The notes under the pieces were generated by a model that was given only the letters and a program-made list of their open reading frames with translations, was not told the DNA's origin and did not search any database. This document shows, in pieces, positions 1,050 through 64,000 of a stretch of DNA of 64,000 nucleotides (position 1 is the first letter of the stretch; each line of letters begins with the position of its first letter). The stretch is from Isurus oxyrinchus. Its lineage: Eukaryota. The position numbers and the translations under genes were made by a program. The stretch is taken from assembly GCA_026770705.1 (NCBI GenBank), contig JANJGN010000017.1, positions 34,596,001 through 34,660,000 on the forward strand, in the 5' to 3' direction.

Positions 1050-2712
1050 CTTCAGCCAGAATTGCTGAGTGGATGATCCATCTTGGCCTTCTCCAGAGGT
1101 CCCCATCACCACAGATGCCAACTTGATTCACTCTACATGATATGAAGGAACAGCTGAGAGAACTAGATACAGCAAAGGCTAGAGACCCGAACAACATCCC
1201 AGCTGTAGTGCTGAACACCTGTGCTCCAAAACTAGCCGCACTCCTAGCCAAGTTGTTATAGTACAGCTACAACACTGACATCTACTGGACCATATGGAAA
1301 CTTGCCCAGGTGTGAACTATGCACAAAATCAGGACAAATCTAACCTTAGTCATTACCACCTTATTAGCTTCCTCTCAATTGATAGAAGGCGTCAACAGTC
1401 CTATCAAGGGGCACTTACTTACCAATAATCTGCTCACCAATACTCAATTTGGACACAGCCAGGGCCACTTGGCTCCACTTTTCATTATAGCCTTGGTCCA
1501 AAAACAGACATTGGAGCTGAATTCCAGAGCTGAGATGAAAGTGAGTACTCCTGATATCAAGGTAGAATTTGACTGAACCCCATTAAAACTGATCTCATTG
1601 GGAATCAGAGGGAATCAGAGGGAAATGCCTCTACTGGCTGGAGTAATACATGGCACAAGGAAAGATGGATGTGGTTTTTGGAGGCCAATTATGTCAGCCC
1701 AAGGCATCTCTGCTGGTGTTCCTTAGGGTGGCCTACTAGGCTCAATTATCTTCAGTTATTTCATCAATGATCTTTCCTTAATCGTACGGCTAGAAGTGAA
1801 AATGTTCACTGTTCATTGGAAACCCTCAGCTCCATTCACAATTGCTCAGATAATAACAAAAGCAAAAATACTAAAGATGCTGGAAATCTGAAATAAAACA
1901 AAAAAATGCTGGAAATACTCAGCAAGTCTAGTAACATCTGTGGAGAGAGATTCAAAGATAAAAGTTTTTGTGGAGCAAGGCCAAAGGGGGTGGAAATAGG
2001 AAAAGGAAAGAAACAAAGGGTGTGCAACTTCTCTATTTTTTTTCTTTTGCTTTTTGATTGCAGCTCTCAGGATCCTGCCATTCACACCTCCTCTAGGCAT
2101 ATATTCTGTTTATTTACTTGTCCCATTACCATTTGCTTTGGCCATGCACCATGAAACCTTTTATCATTTCATCTCCCCTGCCTACCACCTTGTCACAGAC
2201 CTTCCTTTTCATCCTTTGTCTCACTCTCCCCGCTCATCCCCACCCCTTTCACCTGCTCAGGTTATATTTTTAACTTTTCCCAGTTCTGTTGAAAGGTCAC
2301 AGACTTAAAACATTAACTCTCTTTCTCTCTGCACTGATGTTGCCAGGCCTGCTGAGTATTTCCAGCATTTCCTTTTTTGGACAGATAATGAAGCAGTGCA
2401 TGTCCACATGCAGCAAAACCTGGACAACATAGTGCACTATAGCAACTTGCCAAAGCTTCTTATACAGCAGTTTCCAAATCCGTGACCTCTACCACCTAGA
2501 ATGACAAGGTCAGCAGTAGCATGGGAACACCACCACCTGCAAGTTCTCCCTCCAAATCACACACACAATAGCGCTATAGGAGTGCTTTTGCCACAAGGGC
2601 TTCAGCAATTCAAGAGAGTGACTCGCCATCATTTTCTCAAGGGTGTTTTGGGATGGTAATAAATGCTGGCCTTTCAAGCAATGCCCACATCCCATGAACA
2701 AGTAAAAAAAAC
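1050..2712 (+). mobile_element. LINE-A (Jockey-group, CR1/L2/Crack-like) RT-to-3' end copy, internally deleted and split by a Penelope-derived insert
   Basis: LDTAKARDPNNIPAVVLNTCAPKLA; ORF 1319-1576 (NNLLTNTQFG...DIKVEFD). Resumes at ~2381 (CAGATAATGAAGCAGT) and ends in the family 3' tail plus A-run. Confidence 0.85.
1857..2380 (+). mobile_element. Penelope-like element 3' fragment with an inverted terminal-repeat piece at its 5' end
   Basis: 1905-1950 (AATGCTGGAAATACTCAGCAAGTCT...) is the inverse of 2320-2372. The body resembles the 3' region of the GIY-YIG element at 26600-27050. Confidence 0.75.
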
Positions 2713-2949
2713 CTGATAGTGCTTAAAAGATCATTGGCATGACTCACAGCACATGACAAGATATCACCCACCATATGTGCACCTACCTGGCATGTTGCAC
2801 CTACCTGGCAATGGCTATGGGTAAATGTCTTCACAGAGTCCAGGGTCAGCAGTGAGTCAGATGCAGAGTTGTGCCATCTGCTATAAGGGCACCTGCTGGC
2901 ATGCAGCACAGGGCTGGCAAAGCAAGTGACAGAATCGGTCTGCTGGAGC

Positions 2950-3520
2950 CCCCAGGCTGCACAGAAGCATTCCTTTCCTTCATTTTTATGTGGTGCTTCA
3001 TAGTCTCCTGTTCTTCAGCCTTGGCAAAGCTGCTAATGATTTCAGATGCTTTACTGAGCCTTTCTGAAAGGTTTCAGAATTTTTGATTTCCCATCATGAC
3101 ACTCCTTTTTCTCAATCCTTTTAAACTTCATGCACAGGTATTTTTTACTCTCATAATTGTTTTTGCTCCTTTATTTGTTCACAGGATGTGGGCGTCGCTG
3201 GCTAGGCCAGCATTTATTGCCCATTCCTAGTTGCCCTTGAGAAGGGGTGGTAAACTGCCTTCTTGAACCGCTGCTGTCCATGTGATGTGGGTATCCTTAT
3301 GGTACTGTTAGAGAGAGATTGTATGCTCTTTTTACTTTCCTTTGGCCTGCACATAGCCTTATGAATAACCATGAAGATGAACCAGCTCAAAAAGTGTGAT
3401 TGCTATTAGCAAATTATCATTCAGATGGGACTAGCACCCTGTCTTAATCTTTTCAACATGACTTTACCAGTAGAAGAAATTGGCCCTGGAGTGTGGCTAT
3501 TCAATGTGTGACTTTGAAAG
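2950..3520 (-). pseudogene. Possible hAT transposase C-terminal relic, interrupted by a LINE-A 3' fragment
   Basis: Minus strand near 3420-3465 reads VEKIKTGC*SHLNDNLL, resembling the hAT dimerisation 'KIKTxxRSxL' motif; highly decayed. Confidence 0.3.
3168..3325 (-). mobile_element. LINE-A extreme 3' fragment
   Basis: TTTATTTGTTCACAGGATGTGGGCGTCGCTGGCTAGGCCAGCATTTATTGCCC is the reverse complement of the LINE-A tail. Confidence 0.85.
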
Positions 3521-8562: not shown

Positions 8563-8821
8563 GCATCATCCATATGTCACAGATTATGTTCATTCATGCT
8601 TAATCTCATTTCTCACCATAGCACATTTCTTCGAGCCCAATGCCTTCTTCCAAGGAATCCTTACATTCATTTTCTATTCTGATGGATTTATAAGATCCGC
8701 TTCACCCTTCAGAACATTGGTAACAGGCAGAAAAGGGTCTTAGGATATTCATTGATCAGTTGCTATATTTTTACAGTTAACACAAGAGAGTTATGGTAAA
8801 AACAAGCAGGTTTTTTCAAAG

Positions 8822-9412
8822 TAATAAATACAGAAAATGCTGGAAACGCGGATCTGCTCAGGCAGCCTCAATGAAGAGAAAAACAGAGTTAATGGCCTAG
8901 CTATTAACCTTCAACTATGATGGGTGGGAGAGGGTTGGTGGCAGGGGGAAAGTTTAAAAAATGAAATATGGGCAAAACAACCCTAACTCACCACGCACAG
9001 GCACCAACCAGCCCCAACTGTCAGCTTCTCCCCCTGTCCCATATGCTATCCTTCTCTCAGTCCCGTTTGTTGACCCTGCGGCCCTCTAGCTGCTCCTAAT
9101 TATGGGCCTCCTCCCATTCCTGGTTACGATCGCCAAGGGTCGTGGCTGTGACCTCCTGCTGCCAGTATTCCTTCCTGCCCACCAGCCAGGCTGTCCGTCC
9201 AGTCGACTGGCGGGTGGGAGAAGGATCTATAAAGTATTACTTGCCAGGTTTATCAACTTGTTTGGCCTCACCCCGCACCTTCCTATCTCCCTGTCATTGA
9301 CCTGAAATGTTAACTTGGTTTCTCTATCTACTAATGCTACCTGATCTGCCGAACGTTTACTGAATTTCTGTTTTAATTTCAGATTCACAGCTTCCTCATT
9401 ATTTGTTTTTTT
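8822..9412. mobile_element. Penelope terminal-repeat pair in inverted orientation around a ~370-bp unrelated spacer
   Basis: AAATACAGAAAATGCTGGAAAC...AAACAGAGTTAAT (8826-8893) versus GACCTGAAATGTTAACT...TTCTGTTTTAATTTCAGA (9299-9383). Confidence 0.6.
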
Positions 9413-10893
9413 TCAGGGTTCTCCAAAACTTTGCTGGAGATAATCAAGCATAAAACTTAGAGCTTATACTTTGGTTATATAAAGATCATTGCACTTCAAT
9501 TATAGTCGTCACCAGTTTTGGTCACCAGTTACAGCAATGGATTCTGAAGTTCTAGAAAAAGATACAGAAAATGTTAAAAATTATATTTCACCTTGTTTCT
9601 TTTAGTTACAAAGCAGGTTATACCTCTTCCTTACAATGCTAGGCTTAAGCAGTTTATTTATTGAAGTTGTGTATGTTAGATAATTTCATTTGGTCATAGA
9701 TCATTGGTAACCATGGTCTCCTGGAGTTACCTTGATTGCCTCATGTAGTTTTCTTGATTGCCTCACTACAAACATGCTAAACAGAAGAAACATTAGGCTA
9801 AGGACAGGGCTAAGTGACCCCACAACCAACGGATCAAATCAAAATTCTGCAGTTGTGCCACAGACAGTTTTGAATAAGGTGGACGATTTTTTTTTATATT
9901 CACTGCCAAGATGAGTATTTATTGCTCTTCACTAATAGCACTTGAGAAGGTGGTGGTGACCCTCCCTCTTGAACTGCTGCAGTCCATGTGGTATAGGTAC
10001 ACCTATATTGCTGTAGGGAGGGTGTTCAAGTATTATGACCCAGTCACAGTAAAGGAACAGCGATATTGTTCCAAGTCAGGGTGGTGTGTAACTTGGAGGG
10101 GCAACTTGCAGCTGGTGGTGTTTCCATATGACTATTGCTCTTGTTCTTCTAGGTGGTAGAGGTCAAGGTGTTTTGAAGGTGCTGTAGAAGGGGCCTTGAT
10201 GAGTTGCTGCTGTGTACCTTGTAGATGGTACACACTGCTGCTACTGTGCACCGGTGGTGGAGAGAGTGAATGTGTAAGATGATTAATGGATTACTCATCA
10301 AGTGGACTTCTTTGTCCAAGCTTCCTGAGTGTTGTTGAACTGCACTCATCCAGGTTAAGTGGAGGCTATTCCATCATGCTCCTGTCTTGTGCCTTGTAGA
10401 TGGCGGACAGGCTTTGGGGAGTCAAGAAGTGAGCTGCTCATCGCAGAATTTACTGCCTCTGACCTGCTTTTGTAGCCACAGTATCTATATGTCTGGTCCA
10501 GTTCAGTTTCTAGTCAATAGTAACCCCCAGGTTGGTGATGGTGGAGGATTCAGCAATGGAAATGTCCTTGATTGTGAAGAAGAGTTGGTTAGATTCTTGT
10601 TGTTTTCCTTCTGCCAGGTTGCTTTGCTCACAAACAAAGCTGCACACCTATCTACTTGTGGGTGAGTTGGCAAACAATATACAGCAAATGCAGAGACCAA
10701 TATAAGATGAAGCACATGCTGTTTATTTACACCAGTAACAGAACAGTAACACAATGCGTGCTCCTCCAACCAGACCCTATTCTAAACTACTGATTAACAT
10801 TACAGCCTGTGCTACACAGCAATTGGGTAATGCAATCACGTGGTCAATCTGCTCAACTTCTCTTAAAGGTGTGTTGCACCTCAGGTTACCACA

Positions 10894-11299: not shown

Positions 11300-14093
11300 A
11301 GCATTAACTTCACCTGATAGCTATTTGGGACCATCTCCAAAGTTCTTTGCAAAAACTATGTCTCCAACAGTGAAATTTCTTTCATGACTGTGGTAATCAT
11401 GTCCATTTTTCTGGGCCTCCTGACTTCTCTCTACCCTCCCCTCTAAATTCGGCCTTATGAGACCCAAATGTGTCCTGAGATGTCTCTTCATTAATAATTC
11501 TGCAGGGGCTATACCGGTGGTCGTGTGTGGCGTAGTCCTATAGCTGAGTAGGAAACGTGATAATCTGGTTACAATAGGGTCTGTATCAAGTTGTTTATTC
11601 CAGACATGAAGGTCTGGACTGCTCTCTCAGCCAAACCATTGGATGCAGGGTGGTATGGCGCAGTCTTAACATATGTTATGCCACTGAGACTAGTAAATGT
11701 TTGGAATTTCCCGCTGGTGAATGCCATTCCATTATCAGACACTATTACCTCTAGTAAACCGTGTATCACAAAACTCTGATGCAATCTGTCTCTGGTGGCA
11801 GGTGTGGGTGATTTCACCTTGTATACATCCATCCACTTCAAGTGAGCATCTATAAACAAGAGGAACATTGTGCCTAAAAAAGGCCCCACGTAGTCAATGT
11901 GGAGGCGGACCCATGGTCTTCCTGGCCAATCCCAGGGATGCAATGGCGCAGAAGGCAGCAATTTCTGTACCTGTTGGCACTGCATGCAGCTCTTGACTAA
12001 GTTTTCAATTTCTGTATCCATCCCCGGCTGCCATAAGTAGCTGCATGCCAACATTCTAGAGACGCCAGGGTGAGCAATATGCAATTCAGTCAATAATGGT
12101 TGTCTTCCTCTCGGAGGCACAATGACACTCGATCCCCACAGCAAGAGGCCATCCTGGCGGGTGAGCTTGTATCTCCTACTAAAATAGGGTATCATTTCAT
12201 CTGATTTTGGCTCGTTGGACCATCCCTGCAAGACTTGTTCCCTGATGTGAGACAAAACTGGATTGCGGACTTATCCACTGTTTTATTTGTTTGGCATGCA
12301 CTGATGATGAATCCAGAAAATTTACTAACAAGACAAGTTGTTGACGAATTGGGATGCTCACATTGCTGTCTTTTAGAGGTAATTGGCTCCGTGCGTCGGC
12401 ATTGGCAATCTGGCTTCCTAGCCAGCAGATAAAAGTACATTTGTAAGCAGCTAGAATCAGTGCCTACCTTTGGATGTGTGCTGAGGCAATTGGGGGTATT
12501 GCCTTGTCTTTGCTGAACAAGTGTAGTAGTGGCTTGTGGTCAGATAATGGTAAAGTGGCGACCAAAAGTATATTGGTAAAACTTCTTAACGTCAAATACA
12601 ATGGATAAGCCTTCTTTCTCTATTTGTGAGCATCTTTGTTCTGCCACACTAAGTGTTCTTGTGACGTAACCAATGGGCCGTTCAGAGTCATCCACCACCC
12701 GGAGGGAGAGAGCTGCCCCTAGCCCATAAGGGGAAGCATTGCAGGTTAAAATGAATTCTTTCTTTGGGTTGAAATGTAGCAACAGGGCCAATGAATGTAG
12801 CAACTGCTTTACTGTCATAAAAGCCTGTTGTTGTGGGGCTTGCCAAGTCCGCCTATGGCTTTGCTTGAGTAATCCGTATAATGGAGCCAGTACTGCTGAC
12901 AAATTTGGGAGAAAATGGCCATAGTAGTTAATCTTTCCCAAGAAGGACTTAGTTCTATGTCATTTTTCGGGGCTGGCACCTCACAAGAAGCTCTCACTTT
13001 GTCTTCTACTGGGCAAAGGCCCTGCAAGTCAACCCTATGATCCAGGTAAGCCACTTCTTTTGCTTGGAAGATACATTTTTCTCTTTTCAAACGTACTCCA
13101 GCTTGTGAGAAACGCATCAATACCTCTTCCAAATTAGTCAGGTGTTCGTCATCAGTTAGTCCTGTTACTAGGATATCATCGAGATAAACCACCACATGGG
13201 GTAGACCTTAAAGTAAATTTTCCATGGTCCATTGGAAAATAGCACAAGCCAATGAGACTCCAAAGTGAATCTGGTATACTGGTATAACCCCCTATGTGTG
13301 TTGATAGTCACAAAATTCCAAGAGGACTTTACTAGCTTGACTTGCTGGTAAGCGTGGCTCATGTCAAGATCCGTACATGCGGATCCCCCTGCCAGCTTGG
13401 AATACAATTCATCAATTTTTGGTATAGGATGCCTATAAAGTCTGGCCAATTTGTTAACTGTCAACTTGTAGTCCCTGCATATTCGCACACACTCTGGTCA
13501 GGCTTTAGAACTGAAACCATGGGCACTGCCTGTTTGGAAAACTGTACAGGTTTGAGACTTGCAACCTTTCCAGCCTGTCCAATTCAATATGAACTTTTTC
13601 CCGTAATGCATGTGGGACTGGCCTCACCTTCAAGTATCTGGGTGTTTGCCCTGGGATCCACCTGGATTTTAGTTTGCAGCCCCTGAATCTTCCCGAGCTA
13701 TTCCATGAACACAGAGGCATATTTTTGTAATAATTCTTGCAGATCTTTCATTCTGAGTTGAAAAATCTTGGTCCATTCCAACTTTATTTCCTTAAGCCAG
13801 TTCAAACCAAGTAGGGTTGGACCCTCCCCTGCTACCACTATCAGGGGTAAATTAATAGACTGGCTTCCATACTGTACTGGAAATGTGCACATTACTCTTA
13901 CTTGCATGTCTTCACCAGTATATGTCTTTAAGTTAGCATCTGAATTTTCCAGATTTAGTGAGTGGCTTCCTCCATTCAGATATTCAAATGTACGTACCCC
14001 TATAACTATCGTGGATGCCCCTATATCCACTTCCATTCGGATGGGTTTTCTGTTGACTTCCACTGTCATGTAAATTGGCTCTGTTTTACCCAT
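11300..14093 (-). pseudogene. pol: Gypsy pol (protease, RT, RNase H, integrase), frameshifted
   Basis: MEVDIGAS (protease), VYLDDILVTG (RT), CNASPYGLGA/SQIEKEGLSIVF (RNase H), HIAHPG..CMQC plus HIDY/VSDNG/LAERAV (integrase HHCC and DDE), spread over ORFs 11569-14093. Confidence 0.95.
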
Positions 14094-14099
14094 TTTTAA

Positions 14100-14950
14100 G
14101 TTGCGTAGTGAGTAAATATCTGACTTTGTTTCTTCTGATTCCTCTATTATGTGGATTTCACAATTTTAACCTTTTTGTTTAAAATTTTGTCTTATCCTAT
14201 TTTTACAGTATTGCATAATGTGCCCATTACATTAGCAGTAGAAACACTCAGTTCTTTTAAGTTTTCATTCATTTGCAGGTTGTCTGGATCAATTTCTGCC
14301 ATTACTAATGTGGGTTTTCTCTGTTAAACCATTGCTTTTTGCTGGTCTGTTAATGGTGGTTGTTTCCCACCTTTCCGCAGAGCACAGCATTTCAGCACCA
14401 TTTCTAACCAGTGCCTCTCTCCCGATGCAAAGGATGACACCATTTTGTGCTCCCTCGATTACTTCTGAGTCCCCGACTGCACTTTCCATTGCGAGCGCCA
14501 ACTCCAGCACCTTGCTGAAGTCTACATTTGTTTCTGACAGCAACCTGTTTTTGAATGGCACCTTTGTTAACATGTCGTTTATTGACGTCGCGAAGTCTCA
14601 GTGCTCTGTCAATTGTTTTAAGGCTGCTACATAGCAAGCGACTGTCTCTCCAGGGGTGCAACACCTTGAATTAAATTTAAAACTCTGCGTTGTTACCAAG
14701 GATTTCAGTTGAAAGTGGCTCTTTGCAAACTTTACCAACTCATCAAATCTCTTGGAAGCTAGGGTACTGGGTGCCGCTAGACTATGAATTAGGCCGTATG
14801 TTTTACTGCCACATGTCGACAAGAGGATTGCCTCCCCCTATATGTCATTGGCCAAAAAGAAGAATACAAGGTGTTCAATATATTGTGACCAGTCACTGGT
14901 GGTCTGATCAAATGGTTCGATGTGGCCAAACTGTGGCATACTGAAGGGAG
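14100..14950 (-). pseudogene. gag: Gypsy gag with CCHC zinc knuckle
   Basis: ORFs 14598-14822 (STCGSKTYGLI...FKFNSR..PGETVACYVAALKQL) and 14289-14573; CFYC*CNGHIMQYC at ~14205-14250. Confidence 0.9.
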
Positions 14951-15076: not shown

Positions 15077-15692
15077 GTTGTCATGTTCCTACTGTCACGT
15101 CATTTTGCTCGCGAACACAGTTGCACATTTATCTACTAGTGGTGTGTTGACAAACAATATACTGCAGATGCAGAGACCAATGTAAGATGAAGCACATGCT
15201 GTTTATTAACAAAAGTCACAGAGCACTAACACAATGTGTGCTTCCCCAACAAGACCCTATTCTAAACTACTGATTAACATTGTAACCCATACTACACAGC
15301 AACTGGATAATACAGTCACGTGGTTAATCTGTTCACATTCTCTTAAATGTGTTATGTATTGCACCTCAGATTACCACAATTCTCTTTAGTTAAAAATGGT
15401 AATTGTCTGGCATTTGTGTGGAGTAAATGTTATGTCCCACTTAGCGGCCCAAGTCTGGATGTTGTATTGATCTTGCTGCAGACAGGCACTGACTGCTTCA
15501 GTATCTAAGGAGTCACAAATGATACTGACTATTGTGCAATCATCAGCGAACAAGCCCCAAATATGATTTTAGGATAGGGGGGTGGGGAGAGGGGTGGTGG
15601 GGGGGAGGTCATTGATGAAGCAGCTCAAGATGTTTGGGCCTAGGATTCTACCCTTTAAACTCCTCCAGCAATATCCTGAGGCTGAGGTGATT

Positions 15693-16662
15693 GGTCCAGG
15701 CCCAAACATCTTCAGCTGCTTCGTCAATGGCCTATCTTCCATTATAAGGTCAGGCATGGGGATGCTCACTGACGATTGCACAATGGTCAGCACCATTTGC
15801 GACTCCTTAGATACTGAAGCAGTCCATGTCCAAAAGCAGCAAGATTTGGACAATATTCAGGCTTGGGCTGACAAGCGACAAGGAACTTTCACACTACACA
15901 AGTGTCAGACAATGACTATCTCCAACAAGAGAGAATCTAACCATTGCCCAGTTACATTCAACAGCATTACCATCACTAAATTCCCCCACTATCAACACCC
16001 TGGGGGTTATAATTGACCAGAAACTGAACTGGACTAGTCATATAAATACTGTGGCTACAAGAGCAGGTCAGAGGCTAAGAAGCCTGTGGTGTGTATCTGA
16101 CCTCCCGACTCTCCAAAGCCTGTCCACCATCTACAAGGCACAAGTCAGGAGCGTGGTGGAACACTCTCCACTTGCCTGGATGACTGCAGCTTCAACAACA
16201 CTCAAGAAGCTTGATACTGTCCAGGCAAAACAGCTCGCTTGATGGCACCCCTTCCACAAACATTCACCACCTCCATCACTGATGCACAGTGACGGCAGTG
16301 TGTACCATCAACAAAATATACTGTGGAAATTCACCAAGGCTCCTTAGGCAGCACCTTCCAAACCCATGATCACTACTAACTAAAAATACAAGGGCAGTAG
16401 ATACATGGGAACACCACCACCTGGAAATTCCCCTCCAAGCCACTCATCATCTTGACTTGGAAATATATCGCCGTTCCTTCACTGTTGCTGGGTCAAAATC
16501 CTGGAACTCCCTTCCTAACAGTACTGTGGGTGTACCTACACCACATGGACTGCAGTGCTTCAAGAAGGCAGCTCACCACCACCTTCTCGAGGGCAATTAG
16601 GGATGGGCTATAAATGCTGGCCTAACCAGCAAAGCCCACATCCTGTAAAGATTAATAAAAAG
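15693..16662 (+). mobile_element. LINE-A 5'-truncated copy, head-to-head with the previous copy
   Basis: ORFs 15582-16016 (GPNIFSCFVN...TDDCTM...WADKRQ) and 16051-16242; 3' tail AATAAAAAGAAA. Confidence 0.92.
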
Positions 16663-17210: not shown

Positions 17211-17521
17211 GTAGAAACATTTCCCAGAGCTTTGCTTAAATTAGCCACAAATATTTTCCTTCAGACAATGCTTTTGTAGGAGTTTTTATTCATAGTGGGT
17301 GGGAAGGCCGTTGCCCAGGGTTGTCCCATCTAAAGGATGGGACGGACATTGAAGGGCCTGTTGTTCTTTTCTCATCTGTATTTTCATATGTTTATTTTTT
17401 GGATCTTAATTGATATGTTTTGCGTACCTCTTCCATTTTTACTGGAAATTATGCATTCCACAGCCAGACTGGCTCAATATAACTGTAAGCAAACATAATG
17501 CTGAAGCATCTACTCAGTTGA

Positions 17522-17780
17522 AATAAAAGCAAAATACTGAGGATGTCAGAAATCTGAAATAAAAATGGAAAATGCTGGAAATACTCAGCAGGTCTGGCAG
17601 CATTTGTGGAGAGAGAGAAACAAAGTTAACATTTAAAATCAAATATGACTCTTCTTCAGAGGAGTCCTGCAGTGTTCTGAAGAAGAATCATATTCAAGTC
17701 GAAACTTTAACTCTGTTTCTACCTCTATGGATGCTGTCAGACCTGCTGAATATTTCCAGCACTTGCTGTTTCTGTTTTGA
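17522..17780. mobile_element. Fold-back element made of two inverted Penelope terminal repeats
   Basis: 17565-17660 is the imperfect reverse complement of 17677-17775; spacer ~16 nt. Each arm has a CTGAAGA...(G)AAA hammerhead-like core. Confidence 0.85.
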
Positions 17781-19044
17781 TACCTGTTCAGCTAGTTAGC
17801 TTGCATTCTTATGGGCTGGTCGCTCAGCTGGGCTCCATTTTTATTAGAACACCCTCCCTGAAGCTCCTAGCAACTATACAGACAAAAGCTTTGCATGTCT
17901 GTGAACGCATAAAAAGGGTAAATTAACTCCCATTCCTTGCACTGTGTGGCCACAAACAATAATTTTATCCTCTAGTTAATTTCATGAGGAAAGAAAGGAC
18001 ATAAAGATATTGGATACCCGGTGAAGTCCTTGTATCACACTTCTCTAAATGATCTGTCAAACAATCAATTGAAAGGTGACATTAAGTATCACAAGTGGAA
18101 GTTTGCTCAGCCAAACCCACTTAACTGCACAAAGAATGAATGACTTCAGTTTATTGCCTGCTGGGTACATTCGTTCTTCTTAATCTATGGTAGCGCCTAC
18201 ACTGATAGGCAATATAATTGGATAAACATCTCAGGATATATATATATGCTATTCACAGACACCATTCATATGTCATGCTAAACTGTGGTATTATGAGAAC
18301 TGTAATTGAGTGACATTAGCTGCCTGTTCATCTGTACTAGAGCAAAAGCACTATTCTGCAACTTTATTTTTTAAAGAAATTAATTCCATAGAAGAATTTT
18401 TAAATGATTCAAAGTAACTAATAAATTTCATTTCATTCAATTATACTAACAAAAGCATTCTATCATCTTATAGACAGTAACCCTGGGGTTATATGCATGT
18501 CAGCTATTAGAGCCTTTCATGAAGGAATTATTCATGCAAGGTGAACAATGTATGAAAATCTGGACCTTGGAAAGCTTCAATTTCCTTTGAGCAGTCCTGC
18601 CAATCATAGCAAACCAGTCATAATGGAGCCATGATTATCAGTTTCAGTCCCTAACGAGCAGCAAATAAGCCCCTTTAGTTCTTCCCAATTTTCTGCCCAC
18701 CCCTTTTGTTCCTGAAGAGATTGTGGGGAAAATTGGATAAGGGCTGAAAATGGGCCCAGAGATTGCCATGCATGATTAACTCTTACCGTATGCTCCAATG
18801 CAAGCAGCGTGCAGACATTGTGCTGCTTGCACATTTACATGATTGTTGCATACAGCAGCACTATGTGCATTGTTGAATGCCTGCATGCATGACTAGGGGG
18901 CACAAAATATTGAGAGGCTAGCACAAATTCAAGCTAGTCTTGGAGCAAACCTGTACCTCTTAACAGGAGATGCATTTTGGCTGGAACAAGTGCTAGAATT
19001 TATTGCAGAAGTGAGTTTGACCTGGGGTATATGCAAGGTTAGTA

Positions 19045-22698: not shown

Positions 22699-24004
22699 GG
22701 GTGGAAGTTTCTGTCCTCATTGGCATCGGGTGTCATGGCGGGTGTGAGCAGACAATATGGTGGGAAGGCCAAAAAGAGGTTTTACGCCATTGTGAAACTA
22801 GTTTGTGATCATCTGCTCTAACCGGCAATGACAGGCCTTGTTTCCCGCTGCCATGGCACATCAGGGAAGTTATTTTAATACATCTGCATAAAATGATAAG
22901 TCCTGCCCACTGGAATCATTCCCCCCCCCCCCCCCCCCCACACTGGATCATCTGGGCACGTTGTCGTTATTGCACACTGACATGTTTCACATCTGTACAT
23001 AAGCGACATGCACCTGCCGAGCAGCACTTCGCTCTGGAATTTGAGGTTTGTTTGCCTAATTTGCTTGGGGCAGCACTCACAGTCATCAGCACCAAGCTTC
23101 GCCGGCAGCACCACATCACTTTTAGGGGGGCTCACAGGCAGGTTTCTATCTACCAGACCAGCTATAAGGCGGAGGTGGCTTTTCAATGGCTGCAGGGCTA
23201 GGACTTGCTTGGAGTACGGGGGAGAAGTGGCTTCAGGCAGGGGAAGAGGCTGCAGGATGAGGGCTGTACTGGGAAAGGAGGGTATCCCAGGTGTTTTGTG
23301 AGGGGGGGCACATGTTGATCTGTGCAAGTGGCCTCAAGATGGTGAGGGCTGAGGAGGCAGTCTCCAGAGATGAGGCAGTTGGCGATGTGAGGGCGTGTGT
23401 GAGAGAGCAAATGGTGATGTCCCTTGAGCTGGCAGTAAGTGAGATGCCAGTGAATGTGTGATGGGCTTGTGAATGTGAGAGTTTAGAGTGATGAGATGGT
23501 TGCCTTACCCTGGCAGCATGGAAAAGATCATTCATCCTCTTTCTGCACTGGATGTCCAACCTCTTCTGTACAGTATTGGCATTGACCACCACTGCCACCG
23601 CCTCCCAAGCTGGAGTCATGAGGTTGCTGGACCTCCTGCGGCCAGGGGGGGCATGGATGACATCATGGTGGGCCTCCAAAAGGCATTCCAGTGACGGGTC
23701 ACTGACCTCTTCCTGACTTTCAGGGCCATGTCTTCAGTGCAGCAGTCCTAGGCTGCAAGCATTGAGAACTGTGTGTATGGCTACAGTTTAGATATGGCAC
23801 CCAGAGTGAGGAAACGGTGAGGTAACGGCCTGATGGGTGATTCAGAGGCCACCCGCCAGTGAGACAGCATGTTGCCTGTGGCTGCATAATTAATAAGGTG
23901 GGAAAGATGATATAGTATGAAAACAAGTTATTACAACCAACGGGTATAATGTCCTTTATCCCACCCACTACTACACTTACTGCAAATCTGGGACGATTCT
24001 ACCC
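22699..24004 (-). mobile_element. Non-autonomous Harbinger-type element (1.3 kb) carrying only the Myb/SANT first exon
   Basis: TAT|GGGTGGAA...TTCTACCC|TAT; ORF 23233-23679 includes AWEAVAVVVNANTVQKRLDIQCRKRMNDLFHAAR|GTAAG; colinear with 48655-49926. Confidence 0.88.
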
Positions 24005-25774
24005 TATGATTCCTTTAAATAGTGCTTGTGGAGGGCTCTTCCTGCTGCTGAACATGAGCAGCTGTGCAAAGTTAAGAGAAGGAGCTAACTTGAGCAGTGA
24101 GGTCGAAAATGACAGTGCTGGCTTCAAATAGCATTACACACTGATTGATGGCATGATCTGCCTACTCTACTTCCAGTGCACGTTCCTAATGGCCATGGTA
24201 ACACATTCAATGAAATGCTGTCTGACATGGGCTGCACCAGAACTAACCACGCACACCATTTTGCACCCATAACATCATGAGTAATGCCAGAAATAAGGCT
24301 GTTTGGAGCTGAATTTTGCAGCCATTGACTCTTTGCTAGGATACAATGCAATAGGCAACAGATGCTCTCCAGTACTTTGCTTATGCGTGGCTGTTATTGA
24401 TGTGCGACTGAAGAGTGCTGGCAAACAGTCAACAGCCAAGCCTGATACTAGTGGTGAGCAACAAGGACTTACAACATTCATACCAGTGGAGAAAGCCACA
24501 TTCAGAGTGACCTACAGAGTCTGGATTGATGCCCTAAGTTAAAATTAGATTATCCATCAAAGTACCAGGTATATGAATTCCTGTCTGTGTCATATTATCC
24601 ACTGAGCCTTAACTGATGGAAAGTGTGGTCTACATAAGATTCAGCAGATATGCTTTTATCTATGACAGCTTACCACATGGGCAGCATTACCTGCTTTACA
24701 GTACCAATGCCTGAGCAATAGATTTGATTGCAACATGTTACCTCTAGCATTTTTTTTCGCTCCAAAGGGCAACCTCAGATCTAGAGAATTAATGCATAAC
24801 ACAATGCACCTCAAGTCACTCAAACAACCACTGCCACTGTACCTGGTATCAACATAGACAGGGGACACCTGCAACCCCTAAACATAAGGAATCACCAATA
24901 CAGGAATGCTTGCTGAACCTGAAGTTGCAGATACTGTTCCTTACAAGGTGGTTTTGAGAAGTCAAAACATGAGATCCAAAATAAGAAAATGGTGACCATC
25001 GAACTTACTTTCCTGGCCCCCATGCTAGATGACAGTGTAAATGGTTCCCTCTCCTCAGCTACTGTTCCTCTTCCTTTTAAAATCTCTACATCCACCTTCA
25101 TAAAATCTTCCCTTAAACCTCCCTAACTATGCAAACTTCCAAAGCATCTTCAAGTTTTGCTTCCCCTTCAATGTGCTTGAAGTGTGATACCTCCAAAATC
25201 TGTGCCCATACTTCCTGCTACTATGCTTGAATCACCCCAATCAGCTTTCCAACCCTGTCAAAGGACCAAATGGTCCAAACCAAAGTCACAGTCGACAATC
25301 TCCATGACTATGACCTACAGCCTTTGATGCAGTTGACTAATTAATTCTCCTCTAATGCCTTACCTCCATTATCCAGTTCAGTAGGATCAACTCACACTCT
25401 TATCTATCTGACCAAACTTACAGCACCTCCAGCAATGATATCTCTTCCTGCTCCAAGACTGTGATGCCTAGACTCCCTCAAGGGTCTATTCTTGACCTTC
25501 TCCTCTTCCACATCTACATGCTGCGTCTTGATGATATCGTCCACAGTAATGGGGTCAGATTCTAAATATATGCTCCTTTACCTCTGCACCACTTCCCTTG
25601 ATGCCGCCACTGCCATTGTGCTATCAGACTGCTCATCTGGCATCCAGTCATGGGTAAGATGGAAATTCCTCAAGCTAAGCACTGGCAAAACTGAAGCCAC
25701 CATCTTTGATCCTGGCACAAATTTGTATCCTTGCCACCATGTTCCTTTCCTTGGTCACTTTTTCAGGCCAAGCC

Positions 25775-27056
25775 AGATGATGCCATTTTCCAAAACAGTT
25801 CTTCTGACATGTCTTCCTTCTTCCTTAGCCAGGGTTTTCTACCACAGTGGTTGACAGGGCCCTCAACCGTGTCCAGCCCATCTCCTGCACATCCACCCTC
25901 ACACTTTCCTCTCCCTCCCAGAACCATGATAAGGTCCCTTTGTCCTCACTTTTCACCCCACCAGCCTCTGCATTCAAAGGATCATCCTCTGCTATTTCTG
26001 CCAACTCCAGCATGATGCCACCACCAAACACATCTTCCCTTCACCCCCCCTGTTGGCATTCTGTAGGGACCATTCACTCCGGGACACCCTGATCCACTCC
26101 TCCATCACTCCCTGCACCTCAACCTCCTTCCACGGCACCTTCCCATGCAAATGCAGAAGGTGCAACACCTGCCCCTTTTCTTCCCCCCTCCTCACCATCC
26201 AAGGGCCCAAACACTCCTTTCAAGTGAAGCAGCACTTCATTTGCACTTCCCTCAACTTGGCCTACTGCAATCACTACTTTCAATGTGATCTCCTCTACAT
26301 TGGAGAGACCAAACGCAGACTGGGTGAGCGCATTGCGGAACACCTTCGGTCTGCCTGCCAGCATGACCCAGGCCTTCCTGTCGCTTGCCATTTCAACACA
26401 CCACCCTGCTCTCATGCCCACATGTCCCTCTTTGGCCTGCTACAATGTTCCAGTGAAGCTCAACGCAAACTAAAGGAACAGCACCTCGTCTCCGATTAAG
26501 CACTTTACAGCCTTCCGAACTTAACATTGAGTTCAACAACTTCAGATCATGAACTCTCTCCTCCATCCTCACCCTCCTTTTGATCCTCTTTTTTCTAGTA
26601 CTTATTTTGTATATATTTTTTTCTTTTCCCACCTATTTCTATTATTATTCTAAAAATTTATTTCCATGCATTATTTTATCTCCATATTTTAGCCTATTTT
26701 GATCCCTTCCCCCCACCCCATCCCCATTAGGGCCATCTGTCACTTGCTCATCCTGCTTTCTACCCTTAATGTTTCCATTAGCATATCCTTTAGCTAGCAT
26801 CACCACCATCAACACCCCTTTGTCCTTTTGGTTATGACATCTTTGGCAATCTCTTGTTTGCCTCCACCTATCACTGGCCCTCCAGCTCCACCTGTCCCAA
26901 ACCCCCCTCAACCAGCTTATGTTTCACCACATTTCTATTCCTCTTTAGTTCTGATGAAAGTCCATACAGACTCGAAACGTTAACTCTATCTTCGTCTCCA
27001 CAGATGCTGTCAGACCTGCTGAGTTTTTCTAGCAATTTTTTGCTTTTGTTTCAGAC
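25775..27056 (+). mobile_element. Penelope-like element 3' portion: GIY-YIG endonuclease and terminal repeat
   Basis: ORF 26053-26499 has CKCRRCNTC and NLAYC..CDLLYIGETKRRLGERIAEH (PLE GIY-YIG with Cys motifs); terminal repeat at 26945-27056. Confidence 0.92.
26947..26985 (+). ncRNA. Minimal type-I hammerhead ribozyme motif (Penelope-associated)
   Basis: AGTT-CTGATGA-a-AGTC(cataca)GACT-c-GAAAC-GTT-AACT: stem I AGTT/AACT, stem II AGTC/GACT, palindromic AACGTT stem III, GUU cleavage triplet. Confidence 0.8.
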
Positions 27057-28779
27057 ATTCTGCCAGCTTTGCATTCTACTCGACCATGATCTGAGTTTCC
27101 AACCCCATATCCTCTCCAAGGCAAATACAGCCTACTTCTCCCCACCATAATTCACCTGCCTCAGCCCTTCCATCAGTCCATCTTCTGCTGAAACCTCATC
27201 CATGCCTTTGCCATCTACAAATTCAACTATTCCAATGCTCTCCTGCTCAGCATCCCATCCTCCAGGCTTTGTTATATTCAGCTCATCCAACATATTGCAG
27301 CCTTTCTCATATCCTATTCATACTTTACCACTATTCTTTTACCTTAAATGGACGAATGGTCCACCATCATCTTCCATTTTTATCCTCAAGTTTAAATCCT
27401 TTCCTGGCTGCATCCCTTCCCATATCTATAACGTCCTCAAGTTCTAGGTCCTGGGCCTTCCCCAGCACTGAACTGCCTATGCCTCTGAGTCCAGCTCTTT
27501 TATCAGCCCCTCTCAGTGCCCCACTATCACTGACACTATGCTCTGAAATTCTGTCCCTAAACTCTACTGGCTCGCTGCCTTTCCCTTTCCTTTATGACTC
27601 CCTTTAAATCCCACCTCTTCACATATTCTATCTGAGGTATATTACATGCTTCCATTTTAACTTCATTTTTATTTTTCAACACCTCCTGGATGGGTTTTCC
27701 AAGCCTTGGGAAACCTGACAGATGAGGAGAGGTGAGAAAGTCCAGAGCCATCAGGTGAGTGCTTTTAAAGCACTGTTTGTAAGTCAGGAGGAACAAGAAT
27801 GCTTCCCCCTGGCCCACCAAGCAAACCTATTTACACACTGCTTAAGCCCCTGTGTTTGGTCACCCCAACCCACTATTCAAATCCTACAATCCAAATCCAA
27901 ATTCGGCAGTCAGTAAATCCTCCCCTGAATCTCTTCCTGGTTCAGACATATTAGTGCCAGTATCTTTGACCCTTTTTTTCCTTTCTTGTCCAAACTAGTT
28001 ATTCACACATAGGGCTCTGGACCATGACTGCATTTGCATTAGTTGTTTGCATACTGACAATGGGTCCTACAATTTGGATGATTTTGAAAGAGAGTATTGA
28101 AGGGGTAACATGCAGCTTACATTTCAGCATAGGTGCATTATGTCTGCCTAATGTTAGCCTCCCACTGACTAACACCAACAATGGTGCATTTACTTGGATT
28201 TTTCCAAGGAACTCCCTATCAATAAGCTATAATTCACCTGGGCAGCGGTGACAGAGCTGTGAAGCCAGTTGCAATTTGGCCTGTATCCAAATTGCAAGAC
28301 AGACTTTGTAGTGTCGCTGGGTGCTGAGGTGGCTTTGCATTTATAACTCGGGCTTCTTGCAGGCTGCACGGCTGCCTACAGAGTGGCTACTGCAATGCCA
28401 AAGACAGCAACTCCTCTTGCACCTACTCATGCAGCACAACACTTGATTCTATGGGCGCTCCATCACTTTTTCCTTGATTCATACAATACCTCCACATTGT
28501 TGGATTTCCTCTTTGCCATATCAGTTATTTCAACACCTCTTCCCCACCCCACTATGGCCCTTCAACCTTACACAAGGTTTGCTTCCTTCTGGATGAAATG
28601 TCTTTTAAACTTTTCTGAAGTCTGTAAATTTTCTGCACTCTTTTTTTAGTGGCCTCAACCCTTTAAATTAATACATATTTTCCAACTCCCCTTTTAACCT
28701 AACTAGCTCCCTGCAACAGGGCTAAGTTGGAGCTCTGAATAATTACGTGAATCAGTTAACCTGAGGTAATTGTCTGCTG

Positions 28780-31657: not shown

Positions 31658-33729
31658 TACTAATTGGGACATTTCATTAATTACCTCTGCAAAGAAACTC
31701 AGCTTCTTTATATATGGTTCTTCTGTTAGCCACAGTTCAATATTGTGGTGGTATAAGCCCTCTTCCTCAGATACAGTCTTCGCCTGACAGTAGTGTGTCT
31801 GTGTGCCCTTACCTCACCTCCTGTTTCTCCCATTCCTCAGTTGAAAAGAAGATGACAGCCACAATAGAAGCAAAAGCCATTTTGCTGTCTTAGTGACAAG
31901 CTTATTCCATTAGTACAAGCTCTGAACTGAACATACAAGTGACATTTGTATCATCTTTTCAAATGATCCAAAAGTTCAATGTGGCCTACTTTAATTGGAC
32001 CCATCCCATACTTCATGAGCGTAATCAGTATTTTTGCAATAGCTTCACAAAGCCACTTCTAACAGAATGTCAGAAACTGGTAACTTCCATTCACAAAGGT
32101 TGACTGATCTGATTTTCACCAATGCTGCTGGGTGTTGTTAGATAAGAGAAACACCACTGACATCCAAAAGCACAGCTATTCCTTTCTGCCTGATCTAAAA
32201 CAGGAAAATATGAAGTTAAAGATTAAGTGTACTAAACTTGCTACTTTACAAATATCAAGCTTCTCATAAATGTCATTTTTTTTAGAGAACTAATTAATTG
32301 AAAACGCAGTAGTAGTTAGTAGTTAGGAAAGGCATCTCCGCATCTGCAATGAGATCAGTAAATTTTAGCTGAGTTTACAAATAAACCAATTGAGGCTTGC
32401 TTTCTGAATATTGTCATAGGTTAATAGCACTTTTGTGTACCATTCACCTATAATCACTCAAGCTCCCTGTTCCCTCCCATTATTTCAGTTCTCCTATTTT
32501 CAATGACATTTGGACAGCTGATTTTGCCTAATTCTTTTAATAAATGACTCCCTTTTCCACTCTTGTTTCTGAGACTTCATATTCATATTATTTCATTATT
32601 TTGTGACAATACTTTGAATATTAAGCAACAAAGGGATGCATTTACCTCAGTTATTACTGATGTTCGGTACTCTAATGGCAATTTTAGTAACATTAAATAC
32701 CTAATAAAGGCCTTATTGGAATTAATGTTGATTGCAATTCCTACATTTCCCAGGAATCCTGTATGATTTCTGTAAGTCTGGAAACAAATCTTTAGGATCC
32801 TAGAAAGCAAATAATTTGTCACATGATTCACTTCAGCAATGCAAAGATGCTATATAATTAAATTTAGAAAGGAAGAACAGATCCAAAGATGAGCTTCTAA
32901 AAACCCAATATAGCATTCTGCCTTATGTACAAATGATCTTTGCCATTGCATGTACACAATGTTTAGTGCAATCTACCACATCATCTTCTATTCCTGACAC
33001 TATTTCCTTCAGTGACTTTTTAGATTTTACACAGCTCAACATTTGACCTCAATGTTTGGTCCAGAATTGCCTCAACCAAGCCAACACAATTCGGTTGTAT
33101 TTGGCAAGCTGATCTGTTCTGAGCTCATCCCTGTCACTTATCCTCAGTTCTGTTTGCCAGGCTCCTTTGCATCACTTCAGCACAAACAATCTGCTCATAA
33201 AGTGCAGTGTCAACAAAAAGCGGCAGTGACATTTCTCTTTCCACAGCAAGAACAGTATCATTGCCAATATAAAATATATATTCGTAGATAAATTCTTGCC
33301 TTGTGGACAGCTAAAGCTTTATTGTTCTTCTTGCTTTACAGAGTTTGACAATGCAATTGAAAATCTTAAGACAGTACATATGTGAGGCAAACCAACATAA
33401 AGAAGCAAAAGATGAGATTAATATTTAAATACAGTTCTTTTCAAAATACTGGAACACTCCTTTTCAATAATCTCTATGTCAATTATATAAACTCACTACA
33501 AACAAATTATTGATTGTTAAGTGTATAGACTAATTTAAGCTTAGACCTATCATCCAAATAAGTTATGCAATAAGATTCCAGGTGAATTTTATTTTGTTTT
33601 TATTACAGCCCACAATTTTATTCTGTATTCACCTTTTCAGTTGCAGAGACTTTAGGTGGTAAACTCCCAGAACTCTTCCCATTTTCCATCACTCGGCTTC
33701 TAACGAGGTACTAGCCATGAGGACAAAAA

Positions 33730-33831
33730 CAGTAAAAACTGGAAAATAAGAATACTGGTTCAAACTGGCATTCCATTTTAAGGTACACAAGGCCAATTTG
33801 GACCAGTACTCTTATTTCCCAGTTTTTACTG
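33730..33831. repeat. 40-bp inverted repeat with 22-nt loop
   Basis: 33730-33769 versus 33792-33831, with 4 differences, all transitions. Confidence 0.9.
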
Positions 33832-35594
33832 GTTTTTCCTTCTGCCATCCCACTCATTTCCCATCTCAGTTTTTGCTTTGTGCCTTCTACAACATAGTAA
33901 ACAAAATAGTGAATTAAATGTGTAACCTTCCACTCAGCTTACATATAATCATGCAAAAAACGACAGACAGGAAAGACAAGATGGTCCATTCACTCATGTT
34001 GCAATTTAACATCATGAACCCCTCGTTCTCTCACCCATCAGCAACCATGTTTGTGGAGACAATAAACCAGATTTACTGCATTAGTGCTCAACACAGCATC
34101 CTTAACTATCAGAAAGAAATTAGGTTTAAGTAACTACAAAACAATCTACCTGTTTTACACAGGGTAATTGCACTGGAGTAAAAAATGCCAAACTTATTAC
34201 ATGGTTTGATAACACTAAGCAGGAACACATCGCTCTCCTCCATCAGTCCTGTCAGTCTGCCATATTCATATGTTTTATATCAGTATTACTAGTATAATAG
34301 CTTCTTAGCAGAATTAAAATAAAAGAATGACTTTTCTTTCTAAATGGAGACAAATTGTGAATTTTAAAATGTATCTGAGTATTTCTGTTTTTCTATTGAA
34401 TAATGAAGCAAATTATTCACATAACTGTTCTGATTTACAAGTGAAATGAGGAGCAAACGAATACAAGGACACCCAACGAAATCACTAATAAGTTCTGCTA
34501 AAAGTATTTGGAACTTATCACCCAGCCATGCCTACTGACAAGAAGCAACTCATATGGCACAATGCATAATATTAAAGCCTACTGTTAATCCCTACTTAGA
34601 CTTGATAAAACATAGTTATTTGAACCATAACAAAATTATCCTCAGAGATGTTTAATAAACAGAATACTCATTGAGAAACAACATAATATCTAGTCTAGTT
34701 GACTTATAAAGACGATTTTAAGTCACTTGAGGCTTCATTATTTGTATCTTATCAAACATTTCAACTTGTGAAATAAATTGGGGTTCTCACTGTTTGTCAC
34801 TATGCATTCCGCACATCCACTTGCACACACATACATAACAGCCTAGGTGAAGGGATATTGTAATTTCTTTAGACTTTAGAAAGTATTCCAAAATAATAAT
34901 CATGGAAGGAATCAGTTCTCCAAGGAAAAACATTCAGCTTCATACAGTATACATTTTAAAGAATAAATTGTTCTTACTTTAATATCTTTCCTCTAAAACG
35001 AAAATGTACTCACTGTTTTCATGCATAATTAACCACTCACATGCACAATTTCTGCCAAATATCCAGTGTAGCAATCTGTCAAAACATTGTCAAATACTAG
35101 GTCTCCTAATCCACTTGAAATTTTACCGTTGATATCATTGATTGCACAAAATATATCCTGTTATAATTCTGACCAAACTCATATTTTCCCACCATTTAAT
35201 CCTTCTGACTGTCAAAATTTTTAGAGATTAAAATGCTTTTAAGAACGAACATTTAAAATTCAGCCCTCATCAGTAGCAAAAGGAAGCATGCCATTACCAT
35301 TTTAAATGAAAAGTAATATCTGAATTATAGAATAGCAGTCTTGACCTACATACACTTGGGTATATTTTACTCTTAGTGTCAAATATATAGATGTGACTAA
35401 CTGGTGAGCAAAAACAGTAACAGACTTTTCTCCCATTACCACTACTATGCTCATATTTAGTTATAATTTGAAATGTGTGCAAAGTAATGGAAACAATAAA
35501 AAAAATATTATTAAGTGCTTTTAATGACAGTGAAAACTTTGTCAATGCCAATGTTACAAAACAGTCTTGCTTTGAGAGGAATAGAAATAGAGGG

Positions 35595-44865: not shown

Positions 44866-46119
44866 TCTTTTCCTCAAGCATTTTTACAGTCAGCTGTAAA
44901 GTAGCTTTTACTACTTTGTATTTGACTGTAAAAATATTTGAGGAAAGTTTGAGTAGCTGATGTGAATGAATTCTGAGTCTCATTATTAAATAGCAGTTGT
45001 GCTTTCCAACTTTCAGAGTTTGCCAAGTTTTCCCTACCCAATATTTTCACTTTAATTGTGCCACTTGAGAAATTTACATGCCTCAAAATATGGCATGAAT
45101 CTTACGCTTATTGCAGTATCATTAGCAGCAACATTTAAGCAACATCTGTGTGCTATAGAACTAATTGAAGTAGCATAAGTGGCAGCTGTAAATCCACAGG
45201 AAGGTGGCAGTTTGCACCAAGCACTGCTGAGCTAGCTAGTAACTGTCAGCCTGTTACTACAATCTGCTTTATATGACTCTGGTACAGTGCACAATGTCCA
45301 AAAAAACACGAAGAGGGGATTGAATGATGCCACTGATAGATAGTGGCAGGCAATTGTTACAGCTAATGTCCAAATAGTATTGTTTTGTAGGCCATTACTC
45401 TTGATATGACTCATGCTTTTAGCACCATAGACATCTTCAAAACAAAACATTAGAATTCGAAGCCAGCAGCTTTTTTTTCCTTAAGTATCCCCATCACACA
45501 TATATAGTGAGTGCTGTCATTCTGCTAAATCGTAGCCAATACTAAAAACTAGGCTAGAGTCACATACAAAAATAAGTTTAAGTGAATGATTACAATGACA
45601 GAAGCTTGCGGAAATTTTGGCCTTCATTCCCAGTGTTTTTGACGGAAGCATTGATCCTTAATCTAGGTTCTTTAGCTGCAGTTTTCGGAATATGGATTTC
45701 AACTTACAGTTACATTGGAATTGCAATGTCAACCCTCACACCCATCTCCTGCATAAAGTTAATCATGGGGAAGGAGTTTTACCAGTGCTCAGGGGGACAG
45801 GCAAGGCCAAGGCTTAAGGAGGTCCAAGGACTACTCCTGAGGACCAGAGGAACAGTCCTGCCCCTTCTGGCTCAAAGGGATTTCACTTAAAATATAATGT
45901 TTTTATTGCACCTGGGCCATTCTGCAACTCTAGCCAGGATTGGCTCTAGGTAGGTTTCCCGAATTCAGCAGTGCATAGCCATTGCAGCACTGATGAAATC
46001 ATCAGGCCAAGACTTTCCTCGGCTTTTCCATGCCTATTCACAGGTCAGTGAAGACAGTGAGGAGTGAGAAGGTGCCAGGAATGGTACAGGACTGCCTCCT
46101 ACCATCTTAACCCTCCTAA

Positions 46120-63720: not shown

Positions 63721-63755
63721 GTTCTGATGAAAGGTCATCAACCTGAAACATTAAC
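63721..63755 (+). ncRNA. Minimal hammerhead ribozyme motif in a solo Penelope terminal repeat (repeat extends to ~63845)
   Basis: GTT-CTGATGA-a-AGGT(catca)ACCT-GAAAC-ATT-AAC; core boxes intact, triplet G changed to A (CpG decay). Confidence 0.72.
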
Positions 63756-64000
63756 TCTATTTCTCACTTTCCAGATGTTGCATGACCTGCTGAGCATTTC
63801 TGGCATTTTCTGTTTTTAATTCAGCTATCCAGCATCTGCAGTACTGGTGAGTTCTACATCTCCAATCAAAAAACAGATCTGACACCAGAATTCCAGTTAA
63901 CAGGGAATTCCACTTAGTAGAGTACTGGGTGACAGAAATTTTATCATATTTTGCTTTCATACTCATGTTCCTTTGTTGGTTTCTGCTATGGAAAAGAAAA

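Follow-up and report, generated by a model that had tools for sequence, protein, structure and literature searches.

A head-to-head pair of truncated Penelope-like 3′ ends in a shark genome, very probably a one-off insertion by-product

The palindrome at positions 17522-17781 of the window, by which is meant the whole 64,000-nt stretch of Isurus oxyrinchus DNA analyzed here, is very probably a one-off by-product of Penelope insertion. It is likely to represent a single old insertion in which two 5′-truncated 3′ ends of an abundant Neptune-type Penelope-like element (PLE) were placed head to head, and it is likely inert today. It is thus an ordinary, already described insertion pattern reduced to the size of a stump, and not a new element. 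Its parts are as follows.

17522..17660, minus strand: left arm, a 5′-truncated Penelope-like 3′ end (pseudo-LTR) with tail (alignments, profile, family contigs)
17522..17556, minus strand: tail of about 35 nt, on the left arm only (family contig depth, alignment)
17625..17660, minus strand: dead minimal type-I hammerhead remnant, with CUGANGA present, G12 changed to U, the 5′ strand of helix I lost to truncation (1 of 3 pairs) and G10.1-C11.1 now G-U
17661..17673, no strand: central spacer of 13 nt, not common to the family (contig depth)
17674..17781, plus strand: right arm, a 5′-truncated Penelope-like 3′ end without tail (alignments, profile, family contigs)
17674..17711, plus strand: decayed minimal type-I hammerhead, with core boxes intact, a 3-bp helix I, 3 of 5 helix-II pairs, the 15.2-16.2 palindrome broken (C-U) and a predicted cut after 17708

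An inverted-repeat search delimits a palindrome of about 260 nt with arms at 17557-17660 and 17676-17777, these being 77-78% complementary and made up of the blocks 17557-17616/17718-17777 and 17610-17660/17676-17726. Across the 104 positions of arm pairing there are 79 Watson-Crick pairs, 10 G-U pairs and 15 mismatches. Both strands are predicted to form a single long hairpin with an uninterrupted helix of 27 bp, with minimum free energies of -116 and -114 kcal/mol (z -10.8 and -11.8), and none of 200 shuffles was equally stable. The palindrome of this size reported in a preliminary description of the region is therefore real, and that description's view of the arms as terminal repeats of Penelope that meet immediately upstream of the ribozyme core is correct: the arms lie head to head with their 5′ ends facing across the spacer, and the motifs quoted for them are in place, at 17674-17711 in the plus arm and leftwards from 17659 in the minus arm. 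The left arm begins 1 nt ahead of its CUGA box and matches the terminal-repeat profile with an E-value of 2.5e-33, the profile having been made from these same arms; family contigs span it from 17521 to 17660. The right arm extends 2 nt further 5′, while the left arm is longer overall by the tail of about 35 nt. At E-values up to 10, only generic hairpin models of Rfam were matched around the palindrome and around the repeat copy at 27 kb described below. Plant miRNA models match the palindrome with an E-value of 1e-6, by shape alone and far below their cut-offs.

The window contains eight arms of the terminal repeat, arranged as three inverted pairs (1855-2385, 8820-9415, and 17522-17781) and two single copies (26948-27056 and 63721-63845). 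The copies outside the palindrome and the associated open reading frame are listed here.

1855..2385, no strand: inverted pair, with a short left arm with tail and without ribozyme, a long right arm with a ribozyme remnant and without tail, and an 8-nt direct repeat at both ends
8820..9415, no strand: inverted pair, with the tail on the right arm, an unrelated interior of about 375 nt and a T-rich 8-nt direct repeat at the ends
25933..26499, plus strand: ORF remnant of the parent family, with a Cys-rich linker motif and a GIY-YIG-type endonuclease (Neptune-type PLE; 51 protein relatives)
26948..27056, plus strand: terminal repeat without tail, 3′ of the ORF remnant and a 3′ UTR, with the best-preserved hammerhead in the window
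63721..63845, plus strand: solo terminal repeat with partial tail, starting exactly at the helix-I 5′ strand

The ORF remnant has 51 relatives among 238 candidate proteins (best E-value 3e-59), with identities of 51-58% to predicted proteins of stingray, whale shark, zebra shark and bamboo shark, and its full-length relatives (about 40% identity) have an RVT_1 domain followed by GIY-YIG. A Pfam search of the remnant itself (25933-26499) gave no match. Its Cys-rich motif precedes the endonuclease and aligns with that of the relatives; according to the available text of Craig et al. (2021; PMC8557442), a Cys motif between the reverse transcriptase (RT) and the endonuclease marks the Neptune and Nematis PLEs. 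The remnant thus resembles Neptune-clade PLEs in having this linker motif before a C-terminal GIY-YIG-type domain and relatives with RT then GIY-YIG, but the motif is common to Neptune and Nematis and the RT is absent from this copy. The terminal repeat sits about 450 nt downstream of the remnant. As the same repeat closes a Penelope ORF remnant (25933-27056), the arms of the palindrome are Penelope ends, and the repeat is most likely the 3′ end (pseudo-LTR) of a Neptune-type PLE, the clade being assigned by motif and host with the motif also found in Nematis. In a zebra shark read-through protein (P0004), the terminal residues match the translated hammerhead box, by the author's own reading.

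Some further features of the repeat and its setting can be mentioned. At 17706-17730, and at the equivalent place in other arms, a pyrimidine tract is followed by CAG and then ATG, a splice-acceptor-like arrangement directly after the predicted cut site. Behind it a short open frame, which in the best-kept arms extends across the tail, may be where the PLE ORF begins; this could not be tied to the parent ORF, as none of the seven relatives viewed begins with that peptide. In the region 25000-27600, the Penelope remnant appears to be nested in an older LINE, presumably L2-like, with LINE-like sequence resuming past 27056. By eye, the flank before the 27-kb copy closes (25773-25777) with the same five letters as its tail-less end (27052-27056), with four of the five present at the far side, and the direct repeat of the 2-kb pair (1847-1854/2382-2389) overlaps both ends of the element. 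The end and flank letters of this pair and of the 27-kb copy suggest that there may have been microhomology at the target.

The 2-kb and 9-kb pairs had been given as 1857-2380 and 8822-9412 and credited with the layout of the palindrome. They are indeed inverted pairs of the same repeat and agree with the palindrome in general layout, but their interiors are about 330 and 375 nt long, respectively, and their break points and junctions are different. The 2-kb interior gives a marginal alignment to the 27-kb UTR, with a score of 51 against a shuffle maximum of 50; the 9-kb interior gives no alignment to it, and for the DNA upstream of 63721 the alignment score with this UTR is at shuffle level. 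The 8-nt direct repeats at the ends of the two pairs have a chance probability of about 0.011 each, and no target-site duplication of at least 5 nt was found at 17522-17781, such duplications being optional in PLEs.

Fold-back structures in this window are not limited to Penelope, as long inverted pairs of a different LINE-like repeat, with arms up to 86-92% complementary, lie at 46124-47460, 2655-3221 and 15379-15936. Short near-perfect palindromes with arms of 36-48 nt, unrelated to the Penelope end, are found at 33725-33836, 37659-37828 and 44869-44946. There is also a broken LTR-retrotransposon pol at 11570-14170 (minus strand), with protease, RT, RNase H and integrase domains in several frames, and Pfam identifies Myb/SANT and DDE_Tnp_4 remnants at 23236-23733 and 41210-41623 (minus strand), consistent with Harbinger-type DNA transposons.

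Identification of the ribozyme rests on motif comparison with the minimal type-I hammerheads of metazoan PLEs (Cervera and De la Pena, 2014; PMC4209133). As these are described in the available part of that paper, the terminal repeat shares with them the CUGANGA and GAAA boxes, an extra base between positions 9 and 10.1, a short helix I and the lack of a helix III beyond the palindromic 15.2-16.2 pair; unlike them, both motifs here are damaged, with cores about 17 nt apart. The same source reports opposite-strand hammerhead pairs 100-700 bp apart in Schistosoma, with most motifs linked to truncated PLEs, and the minimal animal PLE hammerhead is thought to work as a dimer and is weakly active in vitro (PMC4209133). 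A pattern consisting of the minimal core plus helix I, scanned over the window, matched three of the eight arms, including the right arm of the palindrome; remnants are present in most of the others, and the left arm of the 2-kb pair has no ribozyme core whatever. Hammerhead positions are numbered in the usual way, and the role of G12 is taken as general background. No Rfam hammerhead was found at the gathering threshold in the window, nor at E-values up to 10 around the palindrome or the 27-kb copy. Matches to the pattern in viral (1) and metagenome (2) collections were set aside as chance, lying in GC-rich DNA with no wider similarity.

The preliminary description spoke of two opposed hammerheads, and this holds in part: the remnants do have opposite orientation, but that of the left arm fails the pattern through the change of G12 to U and the single remaining helix-I pair of three. 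Its observation that both arms are decayed was correct, with G12 and helix I lost on the left, and on the right a helix II of 3 in 5 pairs and a C-U at 15.2-16.2. Even with the right arm folded alone, the pair probability of helix II is at most 0.18. In family contigs the majority letter at 17635 restores the G12 of the left arm, and at the damaged sites of the right arm (17687, 17696, 17706) intact letters are present mostly or often, so that the hammerhead damage at this locus is decay. An active hammerhead would have an intact core, helices I and II and the 15.2-16.2 palindromic pair, and neither arm retains this set. As for the proposal that the ribozyme is sequestered in the hairpin, it agrees with the whole-element fold, where the pairing probability of helices I and II is 0.0; the hairpin would bury the ribozyme in any read-through RNA, though little is left to sequester.

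The two arms differ by the tail. In the tail bins 17521-17548 the family depth is 178,526-390,981; past 17787, beyond the right arm, depth is that of a single copy (at most 23). In all three inverted pairs of the window one arm is about 30-35 nt longer than its partner. An inverted truncated copy and a tail of 30-40 bp on one end are described as a PLE insertion pattern in the accessible parts of several reports (PMC8557442; PMC3846280; PMC8969392), and endonuclease resolution has been proposed as the origin of the tail (PMC8557442). As read from the alignments, a tail on exactly one arm is this published Penelope insertion signature. The palindrome combines a repeat belonging to an element with RT and C-terminal GIY-YIG, an inverted 5′-truncated copy, a one-sided tail of 30-40 bp and a hammerhead motif, which together characterize the inverted-pLTR insertions of EN+ PLEs. 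From what is available of the two main accounts of such complex insertions (Craig et al., 2021, PMC8557442; Arkhipova et al., 2013, PMC3846280), the likeness extends to the head-to-head inverted 3′ ends, the strong 5′ truncation and the pseudo-LTR hammerhead. The present case differs in that both copies are trimmed to the 5′ edge of the ribozyme, with no ORF or UTR, and in being near-symmetric with no target-site duplication found. Another recurring opposite-strand joint, from 17521-17523 to 17558-17561, links a tail end to a tail-less end (tail to tail) and was seen in 1 and 3 contigs of run X1, 1 of X5, and 2 and 1 of X20. Such a joint is in keeping with two RT start sites, and in the literature this orientation is the less frequent one.

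Whether the central junction is shared was the test that the preliminary description itself had put forward, and it was carried out on contigs. The contigs of four public runs were aligned to 17437-17856 at 80% likeness, 76-79% of each run being read; the summed depths obtained are not copy numbers, contigs break at repeats, and an old family less than 80% alike would be missed. Run X1 (organism A, which may be the source of the DNA) gave 35,060 aligned contigs and run X5 (organism B) 45,286, with summed depth in the left arm peaking at 3.1 million and 9.6 million, compared to single-copy depths of about 15-18 and 25, respectively. In the CUGA-box bins the depth is 15,038 and 8,543 (X1) and 36,154 and 11,901 (X5), and in the centre (17664-17670) it is 150-170 and 295-348. 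After subtraction of the locus's own contig, 135 and 263 remain, being in both runs 1.1% of the neighboring bins, and many of the contigs that cross the centre carry other letters. There are 234 joints, the best-supported 15 of which have 1-3 contigs per run, and the best 12 of the 78 joints with letters between the two sides all differ, just as the three pairs of the window have three different centres. The central junction is thus not common to the family. One X5 contig does align across 17585-17695, with 14 substitutions and 6 gaps, and together with the crossing of the centre by about 1% of the ribozyme-level depth this indicates that the layout recurs at other loci.

The 13 nt of the centre have no convincing source in the arms, the flanks or the 27-kb copy (best match 10 of 13, in the 27-kb copy); with up to two mismatches they occur at 7 other sites in the window, 4 of them inside one other repeat. 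Joints at mirror positions (17611-17614 to 17718-17720) were rejected as arm-switching artefacts of a palindromic query. In two of the runs, guessed to be RNA, 3,518 and 1,086 family contigs align to the arms and the unique bins of the outer flanks receive none, which says nothing about expression.

The insertion is old. A contig of organism B spans 17598-17759 with 2 differences and another spans 17742-17856 with 1, placing the junction in that organism also and the insertion before the split from it. Identity between the arms is 77.5%, a value that falls in the range of 64-82% spanned by the remaining 27 pairings of the eight arms. Compared to the majority of the other six arms over 89 columns, both arms match in 63; shared changes occupy 5 of the 89 columns, all of them in the ribozyme region and some alignment-dependent, while private changes number 16 in the right (tail-less) arm and 6 in the left (tailed) arm. 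The latter imbalance may be noise or may reflect a second template. This amounts to independent decay of two arms derived from one subfamily, without indication of conversion or of selection on pairing. A Pfam search of 193 of the 204 frames of at least 72 aa in the window found only transposon domains, in 8 frames; the other 11 overlap pieces of the PLE, and host exons too short for this limit would have escaped detection.

As to how the palindrome formed, the RT-endonuclease would have cut both target strands and primed one cDNA at each end, one from the outer of two start sites (the arm with the tail) and the other from the inner site (the arm without). Synthesis of both cDNAs would have ceased on the 5′ side of the hammerhead, right at its edge, with 13 nt of filler linking the two. 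The arms would then have decayed independently, breaking both ribozymes, and the unit would not have been copied whole. The long imperfect hairpin predicted for a read-through RNA would be incidental, and the outer ends resemble terminal inverted repeats because both are the 3′ end of the element. In the available part of a study of purified anole PLE protein (PMC11167929), the protein nicks and extends both target strands without a need for ribozyme cleavage, starts reverse transcription at two sites bracketing the tail and is predicted to be a dimer. Two-ended priming is deduced from this two-strand cutting and the two RT starts, the available part of that study not spelling out inverted arms. 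The 2-kb pair also favors it, as each arm there holds sequence missing from the other (tail versus ribozyme), so that neither was copied from the other. Taken on its own, this priming route is only somewhat probable.

Several observations sit less easily with a one-off event. No target-site duplication of at least 5 nt is present here, while the other two pairs have 8-nt ones, and the break points of the two arms coincide to within 2-3 nt, as a simple fold-back would produce with no need of a hot spot. About 1% of the ribozyme-reaching depth crosses the centre, with one X5 contig aligning across it, and an old diverged family could be hidden by the 80% filter, the 76-79% of each run read and the restriction to the best of the 234 joints. 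The main competitor for the priming route is a self-primed fold-back, where a single cDNA, that of the tailed left arm, doubled back on reaching the 5′ edge of the ribozyme and copied itself, the endonuclease then resolving the intermediate at the boundary of the tail. This explains the near-symmetric centre more simply, the break points being almost symmetric about a 13-nt loop, and in the available text it is how palindromes at inverted junctions have been interpreted (PMC3846280), endonuclease resolution being the proposed origin of the tail (PMC8557442). It would also explain the ribozyme-region variants common to the arms (5 of 89 columns, some alignment-dependent), but these are equally expected from one template subfamily. 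However, of the two arms of the 2-kb pair only the short one is tailed, a state that copying of a target-primed long arm could not produce, and in the palindrome it is the right arm that reaches 2 nt further 5′. Self-priming is accordingly considered a possible but rather unlikely route. A longer inverted insertion (like 1855-2385) that later lost its middle, or two separate back-to-back insertions, would fit the longer inverted pairs in the window, the 16 private changes on the right arm versus 6 on the left and the missing target-site duplication. Either would have both breaks reach the same ribozyme edge by chance; the pairing of tail with no tail and the common ribozyme-region variants fit a single event, and a related species has the same junction, leaving these histories improbable.

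The preliminary description had seen in the palindrome a MITE-like, retrozyme-like Penelope derivative, which would be a non-autonomous unit copied whole by Penelope proteins, with the ribozyme held shut by the hairpin. Such a unit would have the cis-acting pseudo-LTR at both outer ends, a few contigs do cross the centre, and mobilization in trans between pLTRs is described for a rotifer in the available portion of one report (PMC3846280). Against it are the centre depth of 1.1% of neighboring bins in two species, the differing spacers without a dominant joint, the three centres of the three window pairs and the unequal arms carrying a tail from the time of insertion. MITEs are non-autonomous class II elements that are short, non-coding and hairpin-forming, with inverted ends. 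The palindrome is likewise short and non-coding with inverted ends and a hairpin fold; unlike in MITEs, these ends are retroelement 3′ ends of unequal length, with no common internal sequence and no fixed target duplication. A MITE-like family would show a shared junction and length and symmetric terminal inverted repeats with a fixed duplication, in place of which there are joints of at most 3 contigs among the best listed (80% filter, partial runs) and the asymmetry of the tail. Non-LTR retrozymes are, in the available text of their description, head-to-tail tandems with intact same-strand type-I hammerheads (Li et al., 2026, bioRxiv 10.64898/2026.07.22.740005). The palindrome resembles them in being short, non-coding and PLE-derived with a type-I hammerhead, but it is an inverted pair with broken ribozymes, the left motif being without G12 and helix I. 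With an unshared centre, no target-site duplication of at least 5 nt and an inverted layout where retrozymes are tandem, the earlier classification is not supported, and copying of the unit as a whole is most improbable. Least credible of all is a host function of the hairpin, retained as a substrate of dsRNA, small-RNA or editing pathways. The predicted hairpin is strong, with its 27-bp uninterrupted helix, the locus is retained in a second species, and Penelope repeats are heavily A-to-I edited in a lizard, as stated in the accessible part of PMC5625713. Nevertheless, the arms have no excess identity to each other, and the 193 of 204 long frames searched have no host-gene Pfam domain, short exons being liable to be missed.

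A literature search, with most subscription papers outside its coverage, found nothing on this family among reports of shark Penelope palindromes, MITE-like PLE derivatives or Penelope endo-siRNA, and a search on Penelope twin priming, inversion and hammerhead found none on PLE mechanism, as judged by title and the start of the abstract.

A tentative and rather doubtful extension is that Penelope reverse transcription in sharks breaks preferentially at the hammerhead's 5′ edge. Either the fold of the ribozyme or the ability of helix I to pair with itself would stop or turn the enzyme and so set the size of recurring ribozyme-to-ribozyme fold-back units of 200-260 bp, a few of them maybe re-copied whole. 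Three of the eight arms (both arms of the palindrome and the 64-kb single copy) start at most 3 nt from helix I. Among the 12 best joints with intervening letters, 5 have a side that lies no more than 6 nt from the ribozyme edge, and about 1% of the ribozyme-level depth crosses the centre at other loci; these hints are biased, since the query ends at the edge. Direct strand-switch joints at 17657 and 17660 occur in 2 and 3 contigs, with the same bias. If true, such a hot spot would tie the ribozyme to the structure of insertions.

Penelope end fragments number in the tens of thousands, and the palindrome, as one of them and in an already published layout, matters little on its own. Such stumps do call for caution in annotation, as they mimic MITEs and miRNA hairpins. 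As a class they are fossils of the Penelope transposition cycle, and the positions of their breaks and the side of their tails bear on the choice between two-ended priming and self-priming, and on whether the ribozyme shapes the insertions.
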